64,000 nt of DNA from Halorutilales archaeon Cl-col2-1 (GTDB lineage: Archaea; Halobacteriota; Halobacteria; Halobacteriales; Afararchaeaceae), in assembly GCA_041891055.1 (NCBI GenBank), contig CP169074.1:1024001-1088000 (forward strand), given 5' to 3'. Below the pieces are notes generated by a model. It searched no databases. It had not been told where the DNA came from and was given only the letters and a program-made list of their open reading frames with translations. Of this stretch, positions 13,233 through 59,184 are shown piece after piece. Position 1 is the stretch's first letter. The number at the start of each line of letters is the position of its first letter. Made by a program: the position numbers and the translations under genes.

Positions 13233-13352
13233 GAGTCTTATAGGATGTATCCCTGGTACGACTTGAATATTTAGGTTTGGGTGAAAAAGACTACACGACG
13301 AAGTTTGTACTCGACATTATTGTATCAGGCTTGCCCGAAGAATAGTTAGATA

Positions 13353-13559
13353 TCAGTTTTGACGCGGATCATCTACGAGCTCATACAGACCACGGTGAAC
13401 CTTCTCGATCAGACCATGCTCTTCGAGTCTCCTAAGCCGGTTGGTTATATGCTGTCGACTCAGATCTAACTCGTCGGCTATGTAGTTAGGAGTACATCTA
13501 CCCTCAGATAACATATCCAGAATCCGTCGGTCAGTCTGATTCAGATCGATCTCGCCCAT
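13353..13559 (-). CDS. Small winged-helix DNA-binding protein
   Basis: TDRRILDMLSEGRCTPNYIADELDLSRQHITNRLRRLEEHGLIEKVHRGLYELV; type common in haloarchaeal mobile elements. Confidence 0.85.
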   Translation of the reverse strand: MGEIDLNQTDRRILDMLSEGRCTPNYIADELDLSRQHITNRLRRLEEHGLIEKVHRGLYELVDDPRQN

Positions 13560-13677
13560 GTTACCTACTGTGGTTACTGACACATATATCCATACGGTAG
13601 CTAAGAAAACGTGGCTTGGAGGTAATGTATCCAAACGTTAGTAAACTTTAAGTGATCTCCCAAACATTGTATGGTCA

Positions 13678-13761
13678 GAAGCGCGGTAATACGAGTCAGA
13701 ATTCAGAAGATGGCCGGATGTTAGGGCATCCGACCGCGCTTCACGCCAGGTGAAGCAAATG
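13678..13761 (+). promoter_or_regulatory. Structured 5' leader (outer stem GAAGCGCGGT/ACCGCGCTTC, inner hairpin CGGATG/CATCCG) ending GGTGAAGCAAATG
   Basis: Perfect 10-bp outer stem, TATA-like TTTAAG about 26 nt upstream; homologous arrangement at 57559-57656. Confidence 0.55.
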
Positions 13762-14169
13762 TACGATACCCACGAGACTCAGAAAAACGTATCGTTATTA
13801 GAGCAACTACTACACGGACTCCGCGTTGGAGTAGGAGAGTCACGTAACGAGTTCGCCGTATGCGATAGCTGTGGCATACGTCTACGTGAAGGCTCAGAGG
13901 TCACTGTATACGCATACTCCAGAGCCGACGACAGTAGCTGGCATACGAGAGGTGTCTACTGCCGTAACTGTGAGAAGACTCAGATAGAGACATCCACTAA
14001 GAACAACGAAGAAGCCGTCGCACAGTCACACATAGCTCTTCTTCAGGATGCCAAGTACCAGACTGCCTCGCTGGTAGTAGTCGACCCCGAAGTACTCGAT
14101 TACAGCAGCGAGAAAGAAGGCGTCGAGTCTCAGACAGTCGCGGTGACCGAGAAAGGAGGGGGTCGCTAA
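13759..14169 (+). CDS. Hypothetical Zn-binding protein (CxxC...CxxC), mobile-element type
   Basis: CDSC and CRNC; ATG at 13759 follows an SD-like GGTGA. Confidence 0.65.
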   Translation: MYDTHETQKNVSLLEQLLHGLRVGVGESRNEFAVCDSCGIRLREGSEVTVYAYSRADDSSWHTRGVYCRNCEKTQIETSTKNNEEAVAQSHIALLQDAKYQTASLVVVDPEVLDYSSEKEGVESQTVAVTEKGGGR

Positions 14170-14269
14170 ACAGCTATGTCTCAGACCACCCAACCGACTT
14201 TAGCCGTGTCAACGGTCTGAGACACTGTTGTCCCCCATTCGGTCTACACAGAAAGCAGAAAGAGACAGA

Positions 14270-15298
14270 ATGTCTACTACGAGACTCGATAAAGACATCC
14301 TAACCCCGAGGATAGATCTGAGTCTCTCCGAGCTAACACGCAGGGAGTTTCACGAGAGATTCTGGAGTCAGAACTTCGGTCTTCTACGAACGGCGGTAAA
14401 GAGGATAGTCGAAGACCTCGGACTCACGACCTGGAGTGAACTGCCGTCGTATATCTGGCGCAACGGAGTCGACGAGATGAACCGCGAGTACGCAGTCGAC
14501 ATGGTAGCCTTCGAGTTCGAGAAAGAGACCTCGGTAGAGAGACTCAAAAACCTCACTCTAGCACTCGGATCAGGTAAGAGGATCAGCCCGGTCGACGAAG
14601 AGCTATACGGCACATACAACACCACCAAAGACGACGTCTTCGCTCCCTTCAAGATCCTCGATATAGCCGGCATACGTCCCAAAGTCGGTATAGACGCCGA
14701 CTCCAGAGCGGTGGGTGGGATCGATACAGAGTTTTTTGATAAACTGAGTGAATATGTCGACTTAGAGATAGAGGTCAGCCTTGGAGACACAGACGAGCCT
14801 ACCCAACTACCGGAGTATGTCCATATAGATTTAGATACAGGGCACTCGAAGAGAGACAAGTACGGATACTGGTATAAAAGACAAGATCTCCACAAAGCCG
14901 TAGAGACCCCAGACAGAGCTCTGAGAGTTCTCAAAGAGATTGCTGGAGACCTACAGACTAAGAGCAACCACACCAAGTACACCTACGACGAACTACAGAA
15001 GATAACTGATCTCGACAGGAGTACTCTGATAACCTATACGAGGCTCTTAGAGGCGAATAGTCTCATAGATAGGTCTCGGGACGAAAGACGTGTAAAAATC
15101 TCTCTGACCGACGTAGGTGTAGCTTTCGTGAGTTTAGTCATGGATGTCGACATAGAGAAGACAGCCAGATTCAGATCCTCTCTTTCAGGTTTCTTCGTAG
15201 AAGATCTTCTCCCGGAGGCAGGATCCAGTAAGACCGATACCAGCAGTAGAAAACAGAGAAAGCCTCCTCCAAAGACAAAGAAAAGTAAGGTAATCTAG
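14270..15298 (+). CDS. Hypothetical protein with C-terminal winged HTH (possible degenerate plasmid/virus replication protein)
   Basis: Long ORF; YTYDELQKITDLDRSTLITYTRLLEANSLIDRSR HTH; basic C-terminal tail. Confidence 0.55.
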   Translation: MSTTRLDKDILTPRIDLSLSELTRREFHERFWSQNFGLLRTAVKRIVEDLGLTTWSELPSYIWRNGVDEMNREYAVDMVAFEFEKETSVERLKNLTLALGSGKRISPVDEELYGTYNTTKDDVFAPFKILDIAGIRPKVGIDADSRAVGGIDTEFFDKLSEYVDLEIEVSLGDTDEPTQLPEYVHIDLDTGHSKRDKYGYWYKRQDLHKAVETPDRALRVLKEIAGDLQTKSNHTKYTYDELQKITDLDRSTLITYTRLLEANSLIDRSRDERRVKISLTDVGVAFVSLVMDVDIEKTARFRSSLSGFFVEDLLPEAGSSKTDTSSRKQRKPPPKTKKSKVI

Positions 15299-15491
15299 CC
15301 TTACACCGACGCCTTACGGCAGTTTGTTAGCTTTCGTCTCGTTAGAGTCATCTCCGAGAAACTCTCGGCTCACTCTCCCACGGAGTCTTCGTCTTCTTGC
15401 GATTTTGGTGAAAGTAACCTAGACCGACCTTTTCTGAGAACAACGTCGAGAACCATACCAAAAATCAATCCTCAGCTCATTCTACGGATCC

Positions 15492-15840: not shown

Positions 15841-16350
15841 TTAATCGACAAGGTGATTGATAAATTCACGTCCTTCTACGACAGTGATACTTTTTGTTCT
15901 AGAGGTAAGCACGTCTCTGATAGCACGTTCAGCCACTCTATCACTAACAAGTACTGCTACATGATCCGATATGCGGCTGTACTGATACGCTAAGCCAGCA
16001 AGAACCGTGTCAGTTTTTTCGATTTCGTCTTGCGAAACATCGTCAGACGAAATATTAGCCATTCTGTCTCTCGTATCATCCACGACGTTTGAGACGCCTG
16101 AAACACCAAAATCGGTTTCTGCAGAGTCGAGCCACCCGGATTCACTCGCAGCACGTAGACGGTTGCGTTGATACTCGTATTCATCAGGACTCTCTCCTAA
16201 CTCTTCAGCAACTCTTTCGGGCATCTTGACATTGATGTTTTTTCTCTCGAAGTATCTCTCGAAAGCCTGATACTTCTCATTCTCCGGCCCTCCTATCGCA
16301 AAAAGTACGCTACTATCAACTATAACAGTAGATCCAGAGGGTATATTCAT
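15841..16350 (-). CDS. PIN-like protein (putative toxin)
   Basis: VIVDSSVLFA, VAEELG, EKTDTVLAGLA, LVSDR; start overlaps the stop of the upstream HTH gene. Confidence 0.7.
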   Translation of the reverse strand: MNIPSGSTVIVDSSVLFAIGGPENEKYQAFERYFERKNINVKMPERVAEELGESPDEYEYQRNRLRAASESGWLDSAETDFGVSGVSNVVDDTRDRMANISSDDVSQDEIEKTDTVLAGLAYQYSRISDHVAVLVSDRVAERAIRDVLTSRTKSITVVEGREFINHLVD

Positions 16351-16889
16351 CGATTTCGGTGGTCTTGAATAACGTCTTGTAATGCAGTTATCACTGTCAT
16401 AGCTTCTGTGGGATGAACATCGAGTTTTTCAGCGGCAGTACGCTGAGTCAGTTCTTCATCTATAACTCGACGTGTGTAATGTAGAGCAGATGCGAGTTTC
16501 GAGACTCCGTTTCTTTCTACAAAGACTCGTATATCTTCGCTTTCAGACTGTCTCCCAACGGCATCGATAAGTTCCGGTGTAGCTGTAACAGTTCCGTTCG
16601 GGGTTTCGACGTTGATCTCAAGGGTCTCTACCTCCATCTTTGCAGGCTTCTGGTCTTCTTGTCGGGTAAGTATCTGTTTTTCTTCGAGTTCGGATATATA
16701 TTTGTAGGTAGTGGAGTGAGGTAAGCCGAGACCATCCTTTATAGATTCAACTTCGACGGGTTGATTCTTGTATATGTAGGTATACAGGCGTGCAAGCTGT
16801 TGGTTGTTGAGAAGCTCTGAAATGGCGAGGATATTATCGATGGTCTCCTCTGGGTCAGGTTCGTTAGAGGCTGTGTTTTCTACTGACAT
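16347..16889 (-). CDS. HTH DNA-binding protein (putative antitoxin/regulator)
   Basis: LARLYTYI...LGLPHSTTYKYISELEE; C-terminal ELTQRTAAEKLDVHP. Confidence 0.75.
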   Translation of the reverse strand: MSVENTASNEPDPEETIDNILAISELLNNQQLARLYTYIYKNQPVEVESIKDGLGLPHSTTYKYISELEEKQILTRQEDQKPAKMEVETLEINVETPNGTVTATPELIDAVGRQSESEDIRVFVERNGVSKLASALHYTRRVIDEELTQRTAAEKLDVHPTEAMTVITALQDVIQDHRNR

Positions 16890-18916: not shown

Positions 18917-19110
18917 GTAAACTACTCCACCCTACTTCGCTCGGGCAAACCCTCGCTCGTGGAGGGATGGGGCTTTGACGTGGACTTCCGTTCTATGGCT
19001 ATGTAACCAACGGAGAGGCCTGTCTCCCCGGTCGAAGGGGCGTCAGTACTTACACGTTCACGGTCATCGTCCCGCCATTTAGCGCAACGTTTACGGGTGC
19101 GCCTCCGCCG
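18917..19110 (-). ncRNA. Predicted omega/reRNA scaffold of TnpB (5' boundary approximate)
   Basis: Hairpin-rich right end overlapping the tnpB 3' end, the established position for IS200/605 reRNA. Confidence 0.55.
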
Positions 19111-20285
19111 CCCCCAGTCTGGTTGCGACGGAGTAGCCGCCGACAACACCGCACCGCCACGTTCTTTGCTGCGTTGTAGTCGGCGTGATTCTCGTAGCCA
19201 CACTTCTGGCACTCGAACTGTTCTTGCGTGGGGCGGTTGTCTTCGTGGGTGAATCCACAACTGCTACACCGCTGTGAGGTGTAGTAGGCTGACACCGTCT
19301 TAGCCTGTGGACTCCGCTCCAACTCCTCAACATCGATTCCGTAGGCCTTCGCTTTGTACTCGACGTAGTTATACAGGCGGTTAAACCGCCAGCGGTGGTG
19401 CCACGTTGCCCCCTGCGCCCGTTTCCGGATGTCGGTCAAGTCCTCGAAGGCGATCACCGAACAGTCGTATTCGACCGCTTCGTCGACAATTTCGTTGGCA
19501 ACGATATGGAGATACTGCTTGTAGTACGCACGTTCTTTTTCTCCGACATGTTGTAGAGTGCGGTGGGCTTCCTGTGTACCACGTTCTTGAAGTGATCTAC
19601 GTCGCTTCTCGAACTCACGGTGCCAGTGGTCGAGTTCGTCGCCCGTCCAGAACGTGCCGGTTGATGCGACAGCAAGGTTCTCGACGCCGAGGTCGATCCC
19701 GAGGACTGTGTTGTGCTCGGGGACATCAGCGTCAGTTTCTGTGTCGTCTTCAGTGCGTTTGAAGCCGATGTGGAGCCAGAACTTGTCTTCGAACGGCTTG
19801 TAGTGGAGTGTGCTGGTGCGGAACTCCCAGTCGTCGTTTTCGAGGTATTCTTCGAAAGGAGTGTCTGCTGTGTCGTTTGGGAGTACGTAGTCTGCTTCGA
19901 TACGTCCATCCACGGTGGACAGCGAGATATGGTCATCATGGAAGGTAGCGGCTCGTTTGTCGAAACGAGCCGTGTCAGCGGTAAACTCGGGTTGGCTGGT
20001 TTTTTCGTTCTTTTCGAGACGTTCGACACCAGCTTTGACGGCTTCAACGGCTTGGAAGATAGCTTGCTGGACGAGGTTCGCCGTGAGGTCGTACTCTGAT
20101 TTCAGGTCGTGGTAGAGCTCGTCTTTTACGGCATACTTCGCTGTTTTCTTGTAGTCGTCTTCGTCCCAGCAGTGGTCGCTAGTTTCGTTAGCGCAATGTT
20201 TGTACTGGTCGATAGTGTCGAGAAGTGCGTCCTTGTCGTTGTCGTCCACGACGAGTTTAACCGGTAGCGTCCGACGCACTTCCAT
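19050..20285 (-). CDS. tnpB: RNA-guided endonuclease TnpB
   Basis: RuvC GIDLG / AFEDL / HADYNAA; Zn finger CSSC...CQKC. Confidence 0.95.
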   Translation of the reverse strand: MEVRRTLPVKLVVDDNDKDALLDTIDQYKHCANETSDHCWDEDDYKKTAKYAVKDELYHDLKSEYDLTANLVQQAIFQAVEAVKAGVERLEKNEKTSQPEFTADTARFDKRAATFHDDHISLSTVDGRIEADYVLPNDTADTPFEEYLENDDWEFRTSTLHYKPFEDKFWLHIGFKRTEDDTETDADVPEHNTVLGIDLGVENLAVASTGTFWTGDELDHWHREFEKRRRSLQERGTQEAHRTLQHVGEKERAYYKQYLHIVANEIVDEAVEYDCSVIAFEDLTDIRKRAQGATWHHRWRFNRLYNYVEYKAKAYGIDVEELERSPQAKTVSAYYTSQRCSSCGFTHEDNRPTQEQFECQKCGYENHADYNAAKNVAVRCCRRLLRRNQTGGGGGAPVNVALNGGTMTVNV

Positions 20286-26861: not shown

Positions 26862-26901
26862 GCCAAAGACTGATACGTCGAAAATGCATACATGTACATA
26901 C

Positions 26902-27153
26902 ATGGGAACCAAGACAATCTCCCTCTCGGACGACGCTTACGAGAAGCTAAAAGCAGAGAAAAAGGAAGGTGAAAGCTTCAGCGACGTTGTTAGACGATTG
27001 ACATCTAAAAACATCAGTCTCAGGGACTTTCACGGTATTTTGTCAGAGGGGAGTGCGGAAGAAATAAGAGAGGTAGTTCAAAAAAGAAGACAAGATAGGC
27101 AGGAAATTAGGGAGCAAAGACGTGAGAATTTAGTAGAAAGACTCGGAAAATGA
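26902..27153 (+). CDS. vapB: VapB-family antitoxin
   Basis: MGTKTISLSDDAYEKLKAEKKEGESFSDVVRRL. Confidence 0.9.
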   Translation: MGTKTISLSDDAYEKLKAEKKEGESFSDVVRRLTSKNISLRDFHGILSEGSAEEIREVVQKRRQDRQEIREQRRENLVERLGK

Positions 27154-27539
27154 TACTTGACACAACATTTCTCATCGATGTCCTCGACGGGAAAGAAGAA
27201 GCCAGGGAGGCTGAGGAGGTACTCGATAAGAGAGGATCAGCACACGTCACACCGGTATCGGTGATGGAGCTTCTGGAGGGTGCATATCTCTCTGACACGA
27301 CGGACGAAGAGATAGAGGCAGTCAGGACACTTCTCGAAGGACTGAATCATTACAGCTTCGACACCGAAGACGGCATAGCCGCTGGAAAGATTAGTGCTGA
27401 TCTGATACAGAAAGGTGAAAGAGTAGGAATTGAGGACACGATGATAGGAGCCGTTGCACTCAACGAGAACGAGAAAGTCCTCACACGTAATGTCTCGGAT
27501 TTCGAGAGAATAGAAGGCGTCGAGGTCGAGAGTTACTAA
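27150..27539 (+). CDS. vapC: VapC PIN ribonuclease toxin
   Basis: MILDTTFLID...DTMIGAVA...LTRNVSDFERI. Confidence 0.92.
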   Translation: MILDTTFLIDVLDGKEEAREAEEVLDKRGSAHVTPVSVMELLEGAYLSDTTDEEIEAVRTLLEGLNHYSFDTEDGIAAGKISADLIQKGERVGIEDTMIGAVALNENEKVLTRNVSDFERIEGVEVESY

Positions 27540-55637: not shown

Positions 55638-56291
55638 TCAGACTGTCCCGTCGTGGCTGCCACGACTGAGTTCGACCCCCGTGACCTCGGACGCTTTCTT
55701 GAGTGCTTCGTCGTAGTCGCCTTCTTCGAGAGCCTCCCAGACTTGGTCGTCTTCTATGACGTCCCAGAGTAGTCTTCGCCTCTCCCTGTGTCCGTCGACC
55801 TCGTCCTTGAGGACGGGACGTATCTCCTTCTGAAGACGTACCATCGGGTCGGCTTCTTCGAGGACGGGCTCTATACGCCGGCGCAGGTACTTCGTCATCG
55901 CCGGACTGCCGCCGTGTGTGGATATCCCGATGACGGCTTCGTCTGTCTCGACTACGCTCGGGGTTGCGACGTCTCCCTTTTCGTGTGTCGTGTTGACGAG
56001 ACAGTCCTTCTCAGACGCGACCTCGACTACGGCGTCGTTTACCGAGTCGTCAGAGGTCGCGGGGACGACAAGATAGGCGTCGTCGACGTACTCCGCGATG
56101 TTGTCACGCGAGACCTCCTCCTCGACCTTCTCGCAGTCGACGTCGTCGAAGCCGTCGTCGAAGGAGTCGGCGACGACACGGACGTCAGCCTCGGAGGACG
56201 ACGAGAAGAGGGTCGCCTTGCGTAACGCGACAGATCCGCCGCCTACGACTACGACTGTCTTTCCCGAGAGGTCGTGGAGGAGAGGTATCAC
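55638..56291 (-). CDS. sirC: Precorrin-2 dehydrogenase / sirohydrochlorin ferrochelatase (SirC/Met8-like)
   Basis: PLLHDLSGKTVVVVGGGSVALRK, ISTHGGSP. Confidence 0.88.
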   Translation of the reverse strand: MIPLLHDLSGKTVVVVGGGSVALRKATLFSSSSEADVRVVADSFDDGFDDVDCEKVEEEVSRDNIAEYVDDAYLVVPATSDDSVNDAVVEVASEKDCLVNTTHEKGDVATPSVVETDEAVIGISTHGGSPAMTKYLRRRIEPVLEEADPMVRLQKEIRPVLKDEVDGHRERRRLLWDVIEDDQVWEALEEGDYDEALKKASEVTGVELSRGSHDGTV

Positions 56292-56347
56292 TACTCGGTC
56301 TTAGCATCTCGCCGTATATCCGAGTTTCGGGAGGCGGGCGTACATAC

Positions 56348-56560
56348 GTGAACTACCCCGACCTACTGCGCTCGGCTTACGCGCTCGTCTCAAACTCTAC
56401 GAGTTTGATGGCTCGTGAATCTAAGATTCACGAACGCTTCGTTGAGGTCGGAGCTTCGATGTCTTCTCGTCCACTTAGCACCGTGCCAGAGGTGGAGTCG
56501 TTGAAGCACCGTTCGGGCGTGTTCACGGACACCCCGAGACTGGATAGAGGTCGTTCGATA
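56348..56560 (-). ncRNA. Predicted omega/reRNA scaffold (5' boundary approximate)
   Basis: Several stem-loops (TCAAACTC/GAGTTTGA, TCGTGAATCT/AGATTCACGA) at the right end, overlapping the tnpB 3' end. Confidence 0.55.
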
Positions 56561-57561
56561 GACTTACCCAGTCCTCTTTTGGCGATGTTCGTCGCACCGT
56601 TCTTATCCGCATTATCTTCTAAGCCACACTCACTACATCGGAAACATCCTTGTCCTTCGCGTGCCGTTTCTTGGTTGCCACACCGACTACACGTTTGCGA
56701 GGTCATATACTCGTCAACTTCTACGACGGTGATACCCTCGAATTTAGCCTTGTACTCTATGAACTGCTTTAGCGTGTAGTGAGGCATCGAACTAAGCCGT
56801 CGGTTCATCTCACTACCCTTGTCGCCGTCGTCTATCCCTTCGAGGTCACCGATGACAATGAAGGCGTTCCGTTCCTTTGCTTCCTCTACGATGTTACGGC
56901 TTATCTTATGTAGTCGATCTTCGATTACCCTACGCTCCTTATCCTTCACTTTCTGTAACGTGTCGTACGCGCCCTTCTCTTGGAGTGTGGTACGAAGATC
57001 GTGGTAATGACGACGTTTCCGACGTACTTCTTCACCGTAAAAAGTAGTATTGCGGGAAGGCAACGCCACCGACGTTGCCACCCACCGAACGCCGAAGTCT
57101 ACACCTATCACGCCGTCGTAACTCTCACGCACTTCAACCTCTTGTCTTATGGTCAGGTGAGCATAATACTCACCGTCATCCCTTACGATTTTACTGTCCT
57201 TTACTTCCGCTTCGTCGGGTATTTCTTCGTGTGGTTTGATAGGTACGTTGATACCGCCGTAAACCGTTGCGACGGGTACTTTCAGCCACCAATTCGCTAC
57301 TTCGTTGTCGTCACGTCGTAGGTCAACGTCGAAGGTATCGTTACGGATGAACCACGGATACTCGTGGTCATCCTTCACCTTCTCTTTCTCTACGTAAGCG
57401 TCGGCGCATTGTACTGTAGCCGAGTATAAGTCTATGTCGTCGTCACCCTTTACGTACCGCTGAAAAGCCGTGTACTCACGTTCGAGTGCGTCACGCTTCT
57501 TGTTCGTGAGTTCATCGGTTAGTATCTTACCGACGACGGTCTTCTCAGCGGTCTGTTTCAT
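56428..57561 (-). CDS. tnpB: RNA-guided endonuclease TnpB (rearranged RuvC-II type)
   Basis: GVDFG, IVIGDL, VDEYMTS, CSRC...CSEC, NADKNGA. Confidence 0.93.
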   Translation of the reverse strand: MKQTAEKTVVGKILTDELTNKKRDALEREYTAFQRYVKGDDDIDLYSATVQCADAYVEKEKVKDDHEYPWFIRNDTFDVDLRRDDNEVANWWLKVPVATVYGGINVPIKPHEEIPDEAEVKDSKIVRDDGEYYAHLTIRQEVEVRESYDGVIGVDFGVRWVATSVALPSRNTTFYGEEVRRKRRHYHDLRTTLQEKGAYDTLQKVKDKERRVIEDRLHKISRNIVEEAKERNAFIVIGDLEGIDDGDKGSEMNRRLSSMPHYTLKQFIEYKAKFEGITVVEVDEYMTSQTCSRCGNQETAREGQGCFRCSECGLEDNADKNGATNIAKRGLGKSIERPLSSLGVSVNTPERCFNDSTSGTVLSGREDIEAPTSTKRS

Positions 57562-57656
57562 ATGCTTCACCCCTGAAGTATAGGACGGGTGTTGTAGCAC
57601 CCGTTCTACATCATTCTCAGAGAACTAACCCCTGAGTCCGTAGTGTCCTGCACTTC
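57559..57656 (-). promoter_or_regulatory. Structured 5' leader of tnpB (GAAGTGCAGGAC/GTCCTATACTTC stem, CGGGTG/CACCCG hairpin, GGTGAAGCATATG)
   Basis: Same architecture as 13678-13761; TATA-like TTTATG about 27 nt upstream. Confidence 0.55.
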
Positions 57657-57752
57657 TTACCCTATATTAGGGTCTATATTATCATAAATGTTACGCCATA
57701 GGCGTAATATAGGCGTAACAAAATATAAGTAAAACCATACGTTATAACACAC

Positions 57753-57905
57753 ATGGTAAAAGTTGAAGTAGAAAACCCAGACCTACACGCGGAACGGAAG
57801 GTAGACGACAGAGGGAGAGTATATATCGGTAAAGACTTTTCAGGTAAGAAAGTTCGTGTCATACTTGAATCAGTTGAAGAGGTAGACGAACCGGAGGATG
57901 AATAA
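57753..57905 (+). CDS. Small AbrB-fold/DUF2080-like transposon-associated protein (50 aa; not in ORF track)
   Basis: MVKVEVENPDLHAERKVDDRGRVYIGKDFSGKKVRVILESVEEVDEPEDE*. Confidence 0.72.
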   Translation: MVKVEVENPDLHAERKVDDRGRVYIGKDFSGKKVRVILESVEEVDEPEDE

Positions 57906-58134
57906 GTGACGGGGTGTATCACCATCCTACTGCGTATGCGAATCTTCGATTCGCTTGTGCTGGAAAACTCTACGAGTTTTCTGCATCACAGAAATCTCTG
58001 ATTTCTGAAGACTCGCAAACCGTAGATTTGCGAACGTTACTCATCCGCTAAAACGGATTGCGTTACTCCTTGAGGGTGGAGACTTACCCCTGTTAAGTTA
58101 AATTCAAGAGCCTGGAGTCCTTATATGACGCAAG

Positions 58135-59184
58135 ATGACCACAGGAGTAGTTCTTCTCAACTTCGGCGAGCCCCAGAACCCCACGAGAGACAAGGTGGTT
58201 CCGTATCTCGAACGTATCTTCCTCGACAACATGTCGCTCGAAGGCGGCATGTCGGAGGAGGACGCCCGCAAACGCGCCTCGAAGCTAGCCGAGAGACGCG
58301 CACCCGGTCTGATGGAGGAGTACGAGGAGATGGGAGGAGGCTCGCCTCTGATACCTCAGGCGAAGAGCCAGGCACAGATGGTCGAGGACGCTCTGGTCTC
58401 ACGCGGCTTCGACGTCGAGACCTACTTCGGGATGCAGTTCACCGAGCCCTTTATCTCGGACGCAGTCGAGGAAGCGAAGGAGGACGGAGTAGACCGCATA
58501 ATCGGTCTTCCGATCTACCCGCTGTGTGGACCCTCTACGACGGTCTCGTCTCTCGAAGACCTGAGTGACGCCGTCGAGGAGTCGGACTGGGACGGCGAGT
58601 ACAACGAGATAACCGGATGGCACGAACACCCCGACTACGTCGACATACGTGTCGAGAACATACGTGACTACGCCGAAGCGGAGGAGGTTGACCTCAACGA
58701 CGATGACACCGAACTAGTCTTCTCAGCACACGGAACGCCTATACATTACTTAGAAGAGGGAAGCAGGTACGACCAGTACGTCGAGGAACACTGTGCTGAG
58801 GTCGCCGACAGACTGGGTGTCGACTCCTACACGATAGGATACCAGAACCACGAAAACCGTGACATAGACTGGACAGAGCCCGACACCGAGGAGGTCATAG
58901 AGGAGATAGACGCCGAGAGGGTCGTGGTCGACGCCGTGAGCTTCATGCACGAACAGTCGGAGACACTCTCGGAGCTCGACATCGAACTCGCCGAGGAGGC
59001 GGAGGAGGAGGGTCTCGAACTCTACCGCGTCCCCGTGCCACACGACGACCCGAGGTTCGGCTCCGTACTCGCCGACCTGATCCAGCCCGTGATAACCGGC
59101 GCTGTCGAGGAGTCGGAGATGGGTCAGTGCAGATGTAAGGAGACTCCCGGGACGGTCTGTTACAAGCCCGTACAGGTAGAGTAG
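58135..59184 (+). CDS. hemH: Ferrochelatase (probably coproporphyrin III ferrochelatase)
   Basis: VVLLNFGEP, GGSPL, PIYPL, FSAHGTP, SETLSELD. Confidence 0.93.
   Translation: MTTGVVLLNFGEPQNPTRDKVVPYLERIFLDNMSLEGGMSEEDARKRASKLAERRAPGLMEEYEEMGGGSPLIPQAKSQAQMVEDALVSRGFDVETYFGMQFTEPFISDAVEEAKEDGVDRIIGLPIYPLCGPSTTVSSLEDLSDAVEESDWDGEYNEITGWHEHPDYVDIRVENIRDYAEAEEVDLNDDDTELVFSAHGTPIHYLEEGSRYDQYVEEHCAEVADRLGVDSYTIGYQNHENRDIDWTEPDTEEVIEEIDAERVVVDAVSFMHEQSETLSELDIELAEEAEEEGLELYRVPVPHDDPRFGSVLADLIQPVITGAVEESEMGQCRCKETPGTVCYKPVQVE

Follow-up and report, generated by a model that had tools for sequence, protein, structure and literature searches.

The 5′ leader described here is probably a portable translational switch, with two predicted alternative folds, that heads the first genes of mobile elements in the Halobacteriales. 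It occurs twice in the window, the 64,000-nt stretch of the genome of the Halorutilales archaeon Cl-col2-1 that was analysed as a whole (contig CP169074.1, positions 1,024,001 to 1,088,000), once before a gene for a small CxxC...CxxC protein and once before a tnpB gene, and, judging from sequence comparison, both stretches are copies of one conserved leader RNA family of ~70-100 nt. The family heads integrated elements, plasmids, viruses, and one IS200/IS605 lineage. A preliminary description of this DNA had proposed a portable cis-regulatory RNA of mobile elements; what stands firmly, on homologues and covariation, is a portable, conserved, structured leader of unrelated genes, while its regulatory role is a prediction from the two competing folds set out below.

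Both leader sequences reported earlier were found at 13678-13761 (plus strand, copy 1) and 57559-57656 (minus strand, copy 2), and in each the predicted fold has an outer stem (P1) enclosing two hairpins (P2 and P3). Copy 1 folds at -30.1 kcal/mol (z -3.18) and copy 2 at -35.0 kcal/mol (z -3.64), each beating 200 of 200 dinucleotide shuffles. In copy 1, a TATA-like box TTTAAG (13647-13652) precedes the first G of the outer stem by 25 nt. The 5′ strand of P1, S1 (GAAGCGCGGT, 13678-13687), pairs in the MFE fold with the 3′ strand, S2 (ACCGCGCTTC, 13733-13742), and between them lie a short, weak P2 carrying CAGAA twice (13695-13714) and the P3 hairpin (13715-13732), in which CGGAUGU (13715-13721) pairs with GCAUCCG (13726-13732) across the loop UAGG. 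The ATG of the first gene stands at 13759-13761. In copy 2, read on the minus strand, a TATA-like box TTTATG (57683-57688) lies 26 nt before the stem, and S1 (GAAGTGCAGGAC, 57645-57656) forms P1 with 57586-57575, that is, with S2 (GTCCTATACTTC, 57575-57586) of the predicted fold. Its P2 is predicted as a two-part hairpin (57606-57643) with CUCAGGGG/UCUCUGAG at the top, which compensates with respect to CUACGGGG/UCUCGUAG in paralogous leaders; its P3 (57587-57602) pairs GGGUG (57602-57598) with CACCC (57591-57587), and the ATG of tnpB is at 57561-57559. The 13-letter word running from the SD-like stretch to the ATG, GGTGAAGCAWATG, has only two occurrences in the 2.06-Mb genome, namely those of copies 1 and 2.

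Similarity of two short structured sequences might arise by chance. A covariance model (R1) trained on the tnpB copy plus two paralogous leaders, with copy 1 left out, nevertheless retrieved copy 1 in a genome-wide search (37.5 bits, E 5.4e-7), so that the two window copies are alike by homology. Copy 2, one of the sequences behind the model, scores 77.2 bits. By R1 the genome holds six leader copies in total, and at three other genomic places tblastn located paralogues of the CxxC protein with the same leader upstream. The two paralogous leaders are closer to the tnpB leader than copy 1 is.

A second covariance model (R2, threshold E ≤1e-3), to which copy 1 scores 59.5 bits, detected members of the family in 38 of the 150 genomes of the order other than the window's own (39 of 151 with it), corresponding to 34 of 100 high-quality genomes and, own genome included, 21 of 59 genera, at ~80 places in total. 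Among genomes sampled across the phylum, the model matched none of 132 from other orders and 2 of 18 additional ones from this order. Among viruses, an exact-pattern search of IMG/VR returned seven contigs, all seven of which the model confirmed. A scan of a genome collection with the same pattern gave, among the matches listed (80 loci), 74 bacterial and 6 haloarchaeal ones; the model confirmed all 6 of the latter versus 1 of the former (73 failed), so that most of those listed are bacterial chance hits. The confirmed haloarchaeal loci among those listed belong to Natrinema, Natronococcus, Halalkalicoccus (two), Haloarchaeobius, and Haloterrigena. Altogether, 95 loci were searched and 91 matched at E ≤1e-3, yielding the 85 distinct sequences on which the comparisons below are based. 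The homologues anticipated by the preliminary description are therefore many, and come from genomes, plasmids, and viral contigs alike.

Plasmid copies were met on unnamed3 of Halorussus pelagicus, pHTUR03 of Haloterrigena turkmenica (a weak match), and pNRC200 of Halobacterium salinarum NRC-1. The pNRC200 copy (NC_002608.1, 219769-219854, minus strand) precedes the 70-aa hypothetical gene VNG_RS11530 and has as neighbours VNG_RS13550, a divergent gene for a winged-helix protein, and a gene for a Phd/YefM antitoxin; H. salinarum being a model organism whose transcripts have been mapped, the leader can be tested there. Among the processing sites in supplementary text of PMC8303175, which may comprise conserved ones only, none is numbered 219800-219859, a blank that tells little. 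The H. volcanii plasmids pHV3 and pHV4 gave no match to the model; these blanks carry little weight, because the same search missed both the weak match of pHTUR03 and a variant on plasmid 2 of Halalkalicoccus jeotgali. This variant (L173, 8900-9003) stands before a homologous zinc-finger gene and is devoid of the GAAGC/GCTTC words, escapes the model, and, read by eye, has a P1 and a start hairpin overlapping by 2 nt only. A tblastn search of 50,697 phage records with a 356-aa protein and a 70-aa zinc-finger first gene gave no match.

The leader family is previously uncatalogued. Rfam 15 gave no match in the window at gathering scores, in keeping with the earlier expectation that no described motif would be met, and at E ≤1 none of eight leader-bearing loci showed a match to the leader, including to ribozyme models (three-way-junction self-cleaving, hammerhead, and others). 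ARAGORN reported no tRNA-like gene in the window, and literature searches found no earlier description of this motif. The sole Rfam match within the eight loci was a CRISPR repeat (RF01337, 47.8 bits) at 25-54 of L012 (contig G001:C100, 1.7 kb), ~950 nt ahead of a leader copy there.

Comparative support is strong for the three-way junction of P1, P2, and P3. Across the 85 distinct copies, 95.7% of the cells assigned to its helices are paired, compared with 33-57% when the pairing partner is slid, 18 of 19 pairs change on both sides, and none of 500 shuffles reached any of five measures. The junction alignment was fitted to the model and so favours structure, but the margin is large; the covariation that the preliminary description had proposed to look for is strong. 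P1 is 96.8% paired with compensatory change in all seven pairs, and P3 97.4% paired with compensatory change in five of six; the top of P3 keeps GUG/CAC, its loop being closed by C..A or U..G, and P2 varies in length from 4 to more than 15 bp. Within P1, G-U pairs (37) outnumber A-C (8), which favours the sense RNA as the strand that pairs. Overall folding does not discriminate between strands, with the sense strand better in 43 of 84 copies (p 0.78). Apart from the helices, little is conserved: 61 of 85 copies carry AGAA within P2 or its surroundings (9.5 in shuffles), and one junction A (60/84) and a U as second loop letter (70/85) stand out. The unpaired columns of the 85 copies are variable, with no conserved core able to form a ligand pocket, and so little conservation outside the pairs gives no hint of a binding pocket.

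What makes a switch conceivable is a second helix that uses part of P1. From five copies, RNAalifold picked not the outer stem but a hairpin of S2, the 3′ strand of P1, with a word just before the ATG (S3). In copy 1 this alternative hairpin (13738-13756) pairs GCTTCAC (13738-13744) with GTGAAGC (13750-13756), contains the SD-like GGTGA, ends 2 nt short of the ATG, and appears in predicted folding once S1 is blocked; in copy 2, likewise folded with S1 blocked, it pairs CTTCA with TGAAG (57565-57578, minus strand). The near-identity of the segment between SD and ATG, i.e. S3, is explained by S3 repeating S1, as both pair with S2. This corrects the preliminary description, which had taken an extension of the inner hairpin as the main competitor of the outer stem; when copy 1 is folded with S1 blocked, the P3 extension is only a side effect of the second fold.

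The covariance model leaves the S3 stretch unpaired, and therefore the alignment was not fitted to the second hairpin. Even so, 88.4% of its cells are paired over the 85 copies (38-53% when slid), with compensatory change in six of seven pairs; the pairing was also examined in a set of 39 sequences. Its two inner pairs are the most variable (UA 36, GC 12, AU 6, UG 6, and CG 3 in one; CG 27 and GC 23 in the other). Furthermore, S1, S2, and S3 change together across lineages, for instance as GAAGCGC/GCGCUUC/GAAGC, AAGACAC/GUGUCUUUC/GAAAGAC, and ACAGCC/GGCUGUU/AACAGC. G-U pairs number 26 and C-A mismatches 16 in this helix, where register shifts spoil a column-based count, and as G-U is not clearly commoner, pairing as RNA rather than a palindrome in DNA is not proven for the second hairpin.

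The two folds are predicted to be near-isoenergetic, amounting to a bistability in silico. Energies were calculated with ViennaRNA at 37 °C and standard salt, not several-molar KCl, for 84 copies (one of the 85 was dropped as no ATG was found). The fold with P1 enforced (fold A) minus the fold with S1 blocked (fold B) has a median of -2.7 kcal/mol; 43 of 84 copies lie within 3 kcal/mol, 37 favour fold A by more than that, and 4 favour fold B. One of these four is the tnpB copy, for which the enforced P1 register is misaligned, its free MFE fold (-35.0 kcal/mol) holding P1. Blocking S1 produced the hairpin in 79 of 84, and in the region from -12 to +3 the paired nucleotides number 3.9 in fold A versus 8.0 in fold B. 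Left free, the MFE fold holds P1 in 47 copies and lacks it in 37, and the probability of P1 lies between 0.1 and 0.9 in 40 of 84. Even within the window's genome the balance differs: the hairpin is favoured in the leaders of the two intact operons (P1 probability 0.01 and 0.07), and P1 in copy 1 (0.87), the tnpB copy (0.61), and two decayed copies (range of these four 0.61-0.93). During transcription P1 forms first, so that a free equilibrium between the folds is not assured.

The same energies bear on another view, in which the junction, as a blunt and stable structure, would be a 5′-end stabiliser against 5′-to-3′ decay, with the hairpin silencing decaying mRNA after 5′ trimming and no regulated switch involved. 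Such a role would suit a P1 that includes the predicted first nucleotides, the 37 of 84 copies in which fold A is clearly the more stable, and loop and junction sequences that vary freely. However, it leaves unexplained both why the folds are so nearly equal in energy and why S3 tracks S2 in every lineage, and it sits badly with the 37 copies whose MFE fold is without P1; we regard it as unlikely. A true riboswitch, whose junction would bind a small molecule or ion, thereby fixing P1 and freeing the start, has an architecture in its favour that is familiar from translational ‘on’ riboswitches, as well as folds that are bistable in silico and an S2 that P1 and the start-site hairpin have in common (at least 4 nt in 78 of 84). 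The add adenine riboswitch, of the purine class, has a three-way-junction aptamer acting on translation, with the 3′ strand of P1 engaged in a hairpin masking the ribosome-binding site and with folds close in energy. The leader resembles it in both of these last respects, yet differs in having no conserved ligand pocket, metabolic gene context, or Rfam match. Moreover, the letters of its junction and loops show little conservation, P2 ranges widely in length, and the genes downstream are unrelated and non-metabolic, making a riboswitch proper very improbable.

We therefore return to the switch by alternative pairing, which would operate as follows. Transcription would begin 0-3 nt before the first G, from the BRE/TATA promoter. 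In fold A, S1 (GAAGCGC, at the 5′ end) would pair with S2 (GCGCUUC) and close the P2/P3 three-way junction, leaving the start region open; this is presumed to be the ‘on’ state. In fold B, S2 would instead pair with S3 (GAGAAGC), which ends 1-3 nt before the AUG, and the resulting hairpin of 5-11 bp would cover the purine-rich ribosome-binding stretch and abut the start codon. Having at least 4 S2 nucleotides in common, the two folds are mutually exclusive, and being close in energy, they could allow a small input to determine how much of the mRNA is translatable. That input would most likely be a protein holding the junction or the AGAA motif, or alternatively salt or temperature.

The context of the leader agrees in its spacing across loci. 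Upstream, the 85 loci share a BRE/TATA promoter at a fixed distance of ~30 nt, with an AT peak at -32 to -28 (up to 0.96), AAA at -37 to -35, and, closer in, W-rich letters at -13/-12. Given the spacing that haloarchaeal promoters usually show, we infer transcription to begin 0-3 nt before P1. Sequencing runs listed as matching 13300-15300 comprised three of metagenomic DNA, with small shares, and none of RNA. Downstream, the match ends with the ATG in 65 of the 83 copies with a start codon found, and the ATG is at most 3 nt off in 80 of 83. Counting against a switch at the ribosome-binding stretch, a passage of PMC8241225 describes the SD as not strictly needed in haloarchaeal translation. 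The conserved module runs on past the start codon. An A-rich stretch at +19 to +31 is present in 60 of 83 copies and a GTATCG-like box within +25 to +41 in 56 of 83, at +31/+32 in 52 where 3 were expected; in copy 1 the corresponding box (CAGAAAAAC GTATCG) is at 13780-13794, conserved at the nucleotide level. Ahead of unrelated proteins the box falls in two different reading frames, and it has no general complement in the leader: duplexes of +18 to +46 with the first 30 nt (-12.0, shuffles -11.4) or with S2 (-10.8, shuffles -10.7) were no better than in shuffled sequences. It is thus a nucleotide-level signal outside the switch model.

The genes that follow have little in common. First genes fall into 32 unrelated BLAST clusters among 83 and mostly encode small zinc-finger or uncharacterised proteins, the largest clusters being a 68-70-aa zinc-finger family (21), a family matching the viral phrog_17897 (14), and the 136-aa CxxC family (6), with tnpB as first gene in 1 of 83. 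On the other side of the leader, a jackhmmer search started from the 68-aa protein of the window detected a divergent winged-helix-like ORF at 50 of the 85 distinct loci. This count replaced a cruder pick of the longest ORF, which had assigned HTH families to ~11 of 84 at E ≤1e-5. The window protein itself (13353-13559, minus strand), earlier called a winged helix-turn-helix, indeed matches Pfam HTH_24 (E 2.5e-11).

A frequent DNA-binding neighbour raises the question of a signal in DNA, in which the GCTTCnn-N5-nnGAAGC palindrome at the start together with GAAGC at +1 would serve as regulator operators or recombination sites. In size the palindrome fits a dimer operator, the winged-helix gene is there at the loci just counted, the G-U to C-A ratio of the second hairpin is indecisive, and the +31 box inside the ORF is without an RNA partner. 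Against this, P2 and P3 covary with almost no conservation of sequence, P1 prefers G-U to A-C, loci whose neighbour is something other than a winged-helix gene retain the same words, and the site is 65-95 nt downstream of the promoter. As an account of the leader we deem this the most improbable of those considered, and for the second-hairpin part a DNA palindrome is a minor rival.

The repetition of words between copies also invites an RNA-RNA system modelled on phage P4 CI RNA and the processed IS200 5′tnpA RNA. The leader would then be an antisense target or the source of a processed small RNA, with S2 pairing in trans with S1/S3 of sister copies and conferring immunity between elements. 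The two strands fold equally well, six copies in one genome have the same S1/S2/S3 words, and there is the precedent of IS200, with an antisense RNA and a processed 5′ RNA according to passages of PMC4513863, PMC5435999, and PMC12594629. On the opposite strand, however, a conserved TATA-like box is missing within 120 nt downstream (YWTAAA in 2 of 85 loci), and we hold this explanation to be quite unlikely.

The tnpB gene (56428-57561, minus strand) directly behind copy 2 encodes a 377-aa protein with Pfam matches to Cas12f1-like_TNB (E 5.6e-23) and OrfB_IS605, and belongs to a 1.75-kb insertion of IS200/IS605 type (56353-58098, minus strand) that also holds the promoter, the leader, and a divergent 50-aa ORF (57753-57905, plus strand). 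The limits of the insertion follow from an empty site in a genome of the same genus, where the flanks 56250-56352 and 58099-58200 abut; both insertion ends recur elsewhere in that genome. It is located between a precorrin-2-dehydrogenase-like gene and a ferrochelatase gene. The leader lies ~440 nt inside the left end, between the divergent ORF and the 5′ end of tnpB; being well inside the element, it is not an end hairpin. The label ‘AbrB-like’ previously given to the 50-aa ORF finds no support: nothing matched in Pfam at E ≤0.01 or among PDB sequences below E 1.5, nor did BLASTP detect a likeness to the MraZ/MazE-like protein found at the same place in a relative.

This relative (L181, G011:C17) is the only one of 14 loci with the closest TnpB relatives, drawn from 150 genomes, to bear the leader; its tnpB product is 81% identical over aligned residues 76-374 of the 377-aa protein, and relatives at 70% and 66% are without the leader. 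Its element (269-2424) carries a divergent MraZ/MazE-like gene, the leader (508-602), a 54-aa zinc-finger ORF, tnpA (Y1_Tnp, E 1.1e-36), and tnpB, so that the leader lies in the 5′ UTR of an IS200/IS605 transposase operon; the window has a tnpB-only derivative of such an element. The window element is thus a cut-down member of an IS lineage carrying the leader, with the zinc-finger gene and tnpA lost. As the leader is internal to the element and the relative has leader, zinc-finger gene, tnpA, and tnpB in a row, it is not a fresh capture, and the earlier notion that a TnpB had simply co-opted it does not hold. The layout of L181 is unusual for an IS200/IS605 element. In the window's genome, tblastn located ~31 tnpB places, including 19050-20285 (minus strand), only one of which has the leader. 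Another tnpB neighbours a paralogue of the 50-aa ORF (51% identity), with a short spacer that appears leaderless.

The logic that we propose has precedents in other mobile elements. Fold-back inhibition in IS10/IS50, the fbi/tac pairing of hok mRNA, and the CI RNA of phage P4 are bacterial systems triggered by read-through, 3′ processing, and RNase P. What they would share with the leader is that one mRNA word with two alternative partners decides access to the start; mobile elements use these systems to keep the first gene quiet. They differ from it in layout and in having known triggers; in the leader the 5′ end would act as an anti-sequestor. Two other structured nucleic acids occur in the same kind of element as copy 2. 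The end hairpins of IS200/IS605 elements are at the tips, while the leader is internal (57559-57656 within 56353-58098), and the omega RNA (reRNA) of TnpB is located at the 3′ end of tnpB, while the leader is upstream of the tnpB start. Part of PMC4615843 likewise assigns the omega RNA to this 3′ end. Closest in context is the transposase 5′ UTR of IS200 (with art200) in Enterobacteriaceae, which likewise leads the transposase operon of an IS200/IS605-family element, as in L181. Passages of PMC4513863 describe that secondary structure of the IS200 leader represses translation, and passages of PMC5435999 and PMC12594629 that its 5′ UTR is processed to a small, highly structured RNA. The Rfam searches gave no sign of homology between the two leaders, as far as Rfam holds a model of the IS200 one; furthermore, the present leader is archaeal, combines a three-way junction with a competing hairpin, and is mostly found outside IS elements. 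By analogy, then, its logic would be translational control by alternative pairing, as in IS200, riboswitch platforms, and the fold-back of IS10 and hok.

To our knowledge, few structured cis-regulatory leaders are known in archaea. Here, one with strong comparative support is present in about a quarter of the sampled Halobacteriales genomes, at the first gene of mobile elements, where it offers a handle on the timing of early genes in archaeal mobile elements and a predicted natural two-state RNA working in molar salt. The covariance model can also serve as a marker for the regulatory start of unannotated elements. Although this is speculative and we rate it as doubtful, the leader could represent a new class of RNA switch of the Halobacteriales mobilome, which reads a host signal (salt, temperature, ion, or small molecule) or the dose of sister elements through GAAGC/GCUUC pairing in trans, and which times early genes of viruses, plasmids, and an IS family, with AGAA and the GUAUCG box at +31 as the landing site of an RNA-binding factor.

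Finally, the genes behind copy 1 belong to a recurrent arrangement. The CxxC gene (13759-14169, plus strand) has paralogues with 81% and 68% identity behind the same leader, and the full operon in the window's genome consists of the divergent winged-helix gene, the leader, the CxxC gene, a ParB-N/DNA methyltransferase gene, and genes for a ~200-aa and a 342-aa protein; the operon of copy 1 is without the middle two, namely the methyltransferase and the ~200-aa protein. At two places of the same genome outside the window (L002, 3152-6965, and L003, 3864-7632), the CxxC gene, in what seems its normal setting, heads an operon with a ParB-N/N6_N4 DNA methyltransferase fusion and two uncharacterised proteins, inserted among sugar-nucleotide genes. 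The island beside copy 1, in turn, carries a 169-aa ORF coupled to a TrmB/DUF7437 regulator, plus a VapB/PIN pair (15841-16889, minus strand; 26884-27539, plus strand).
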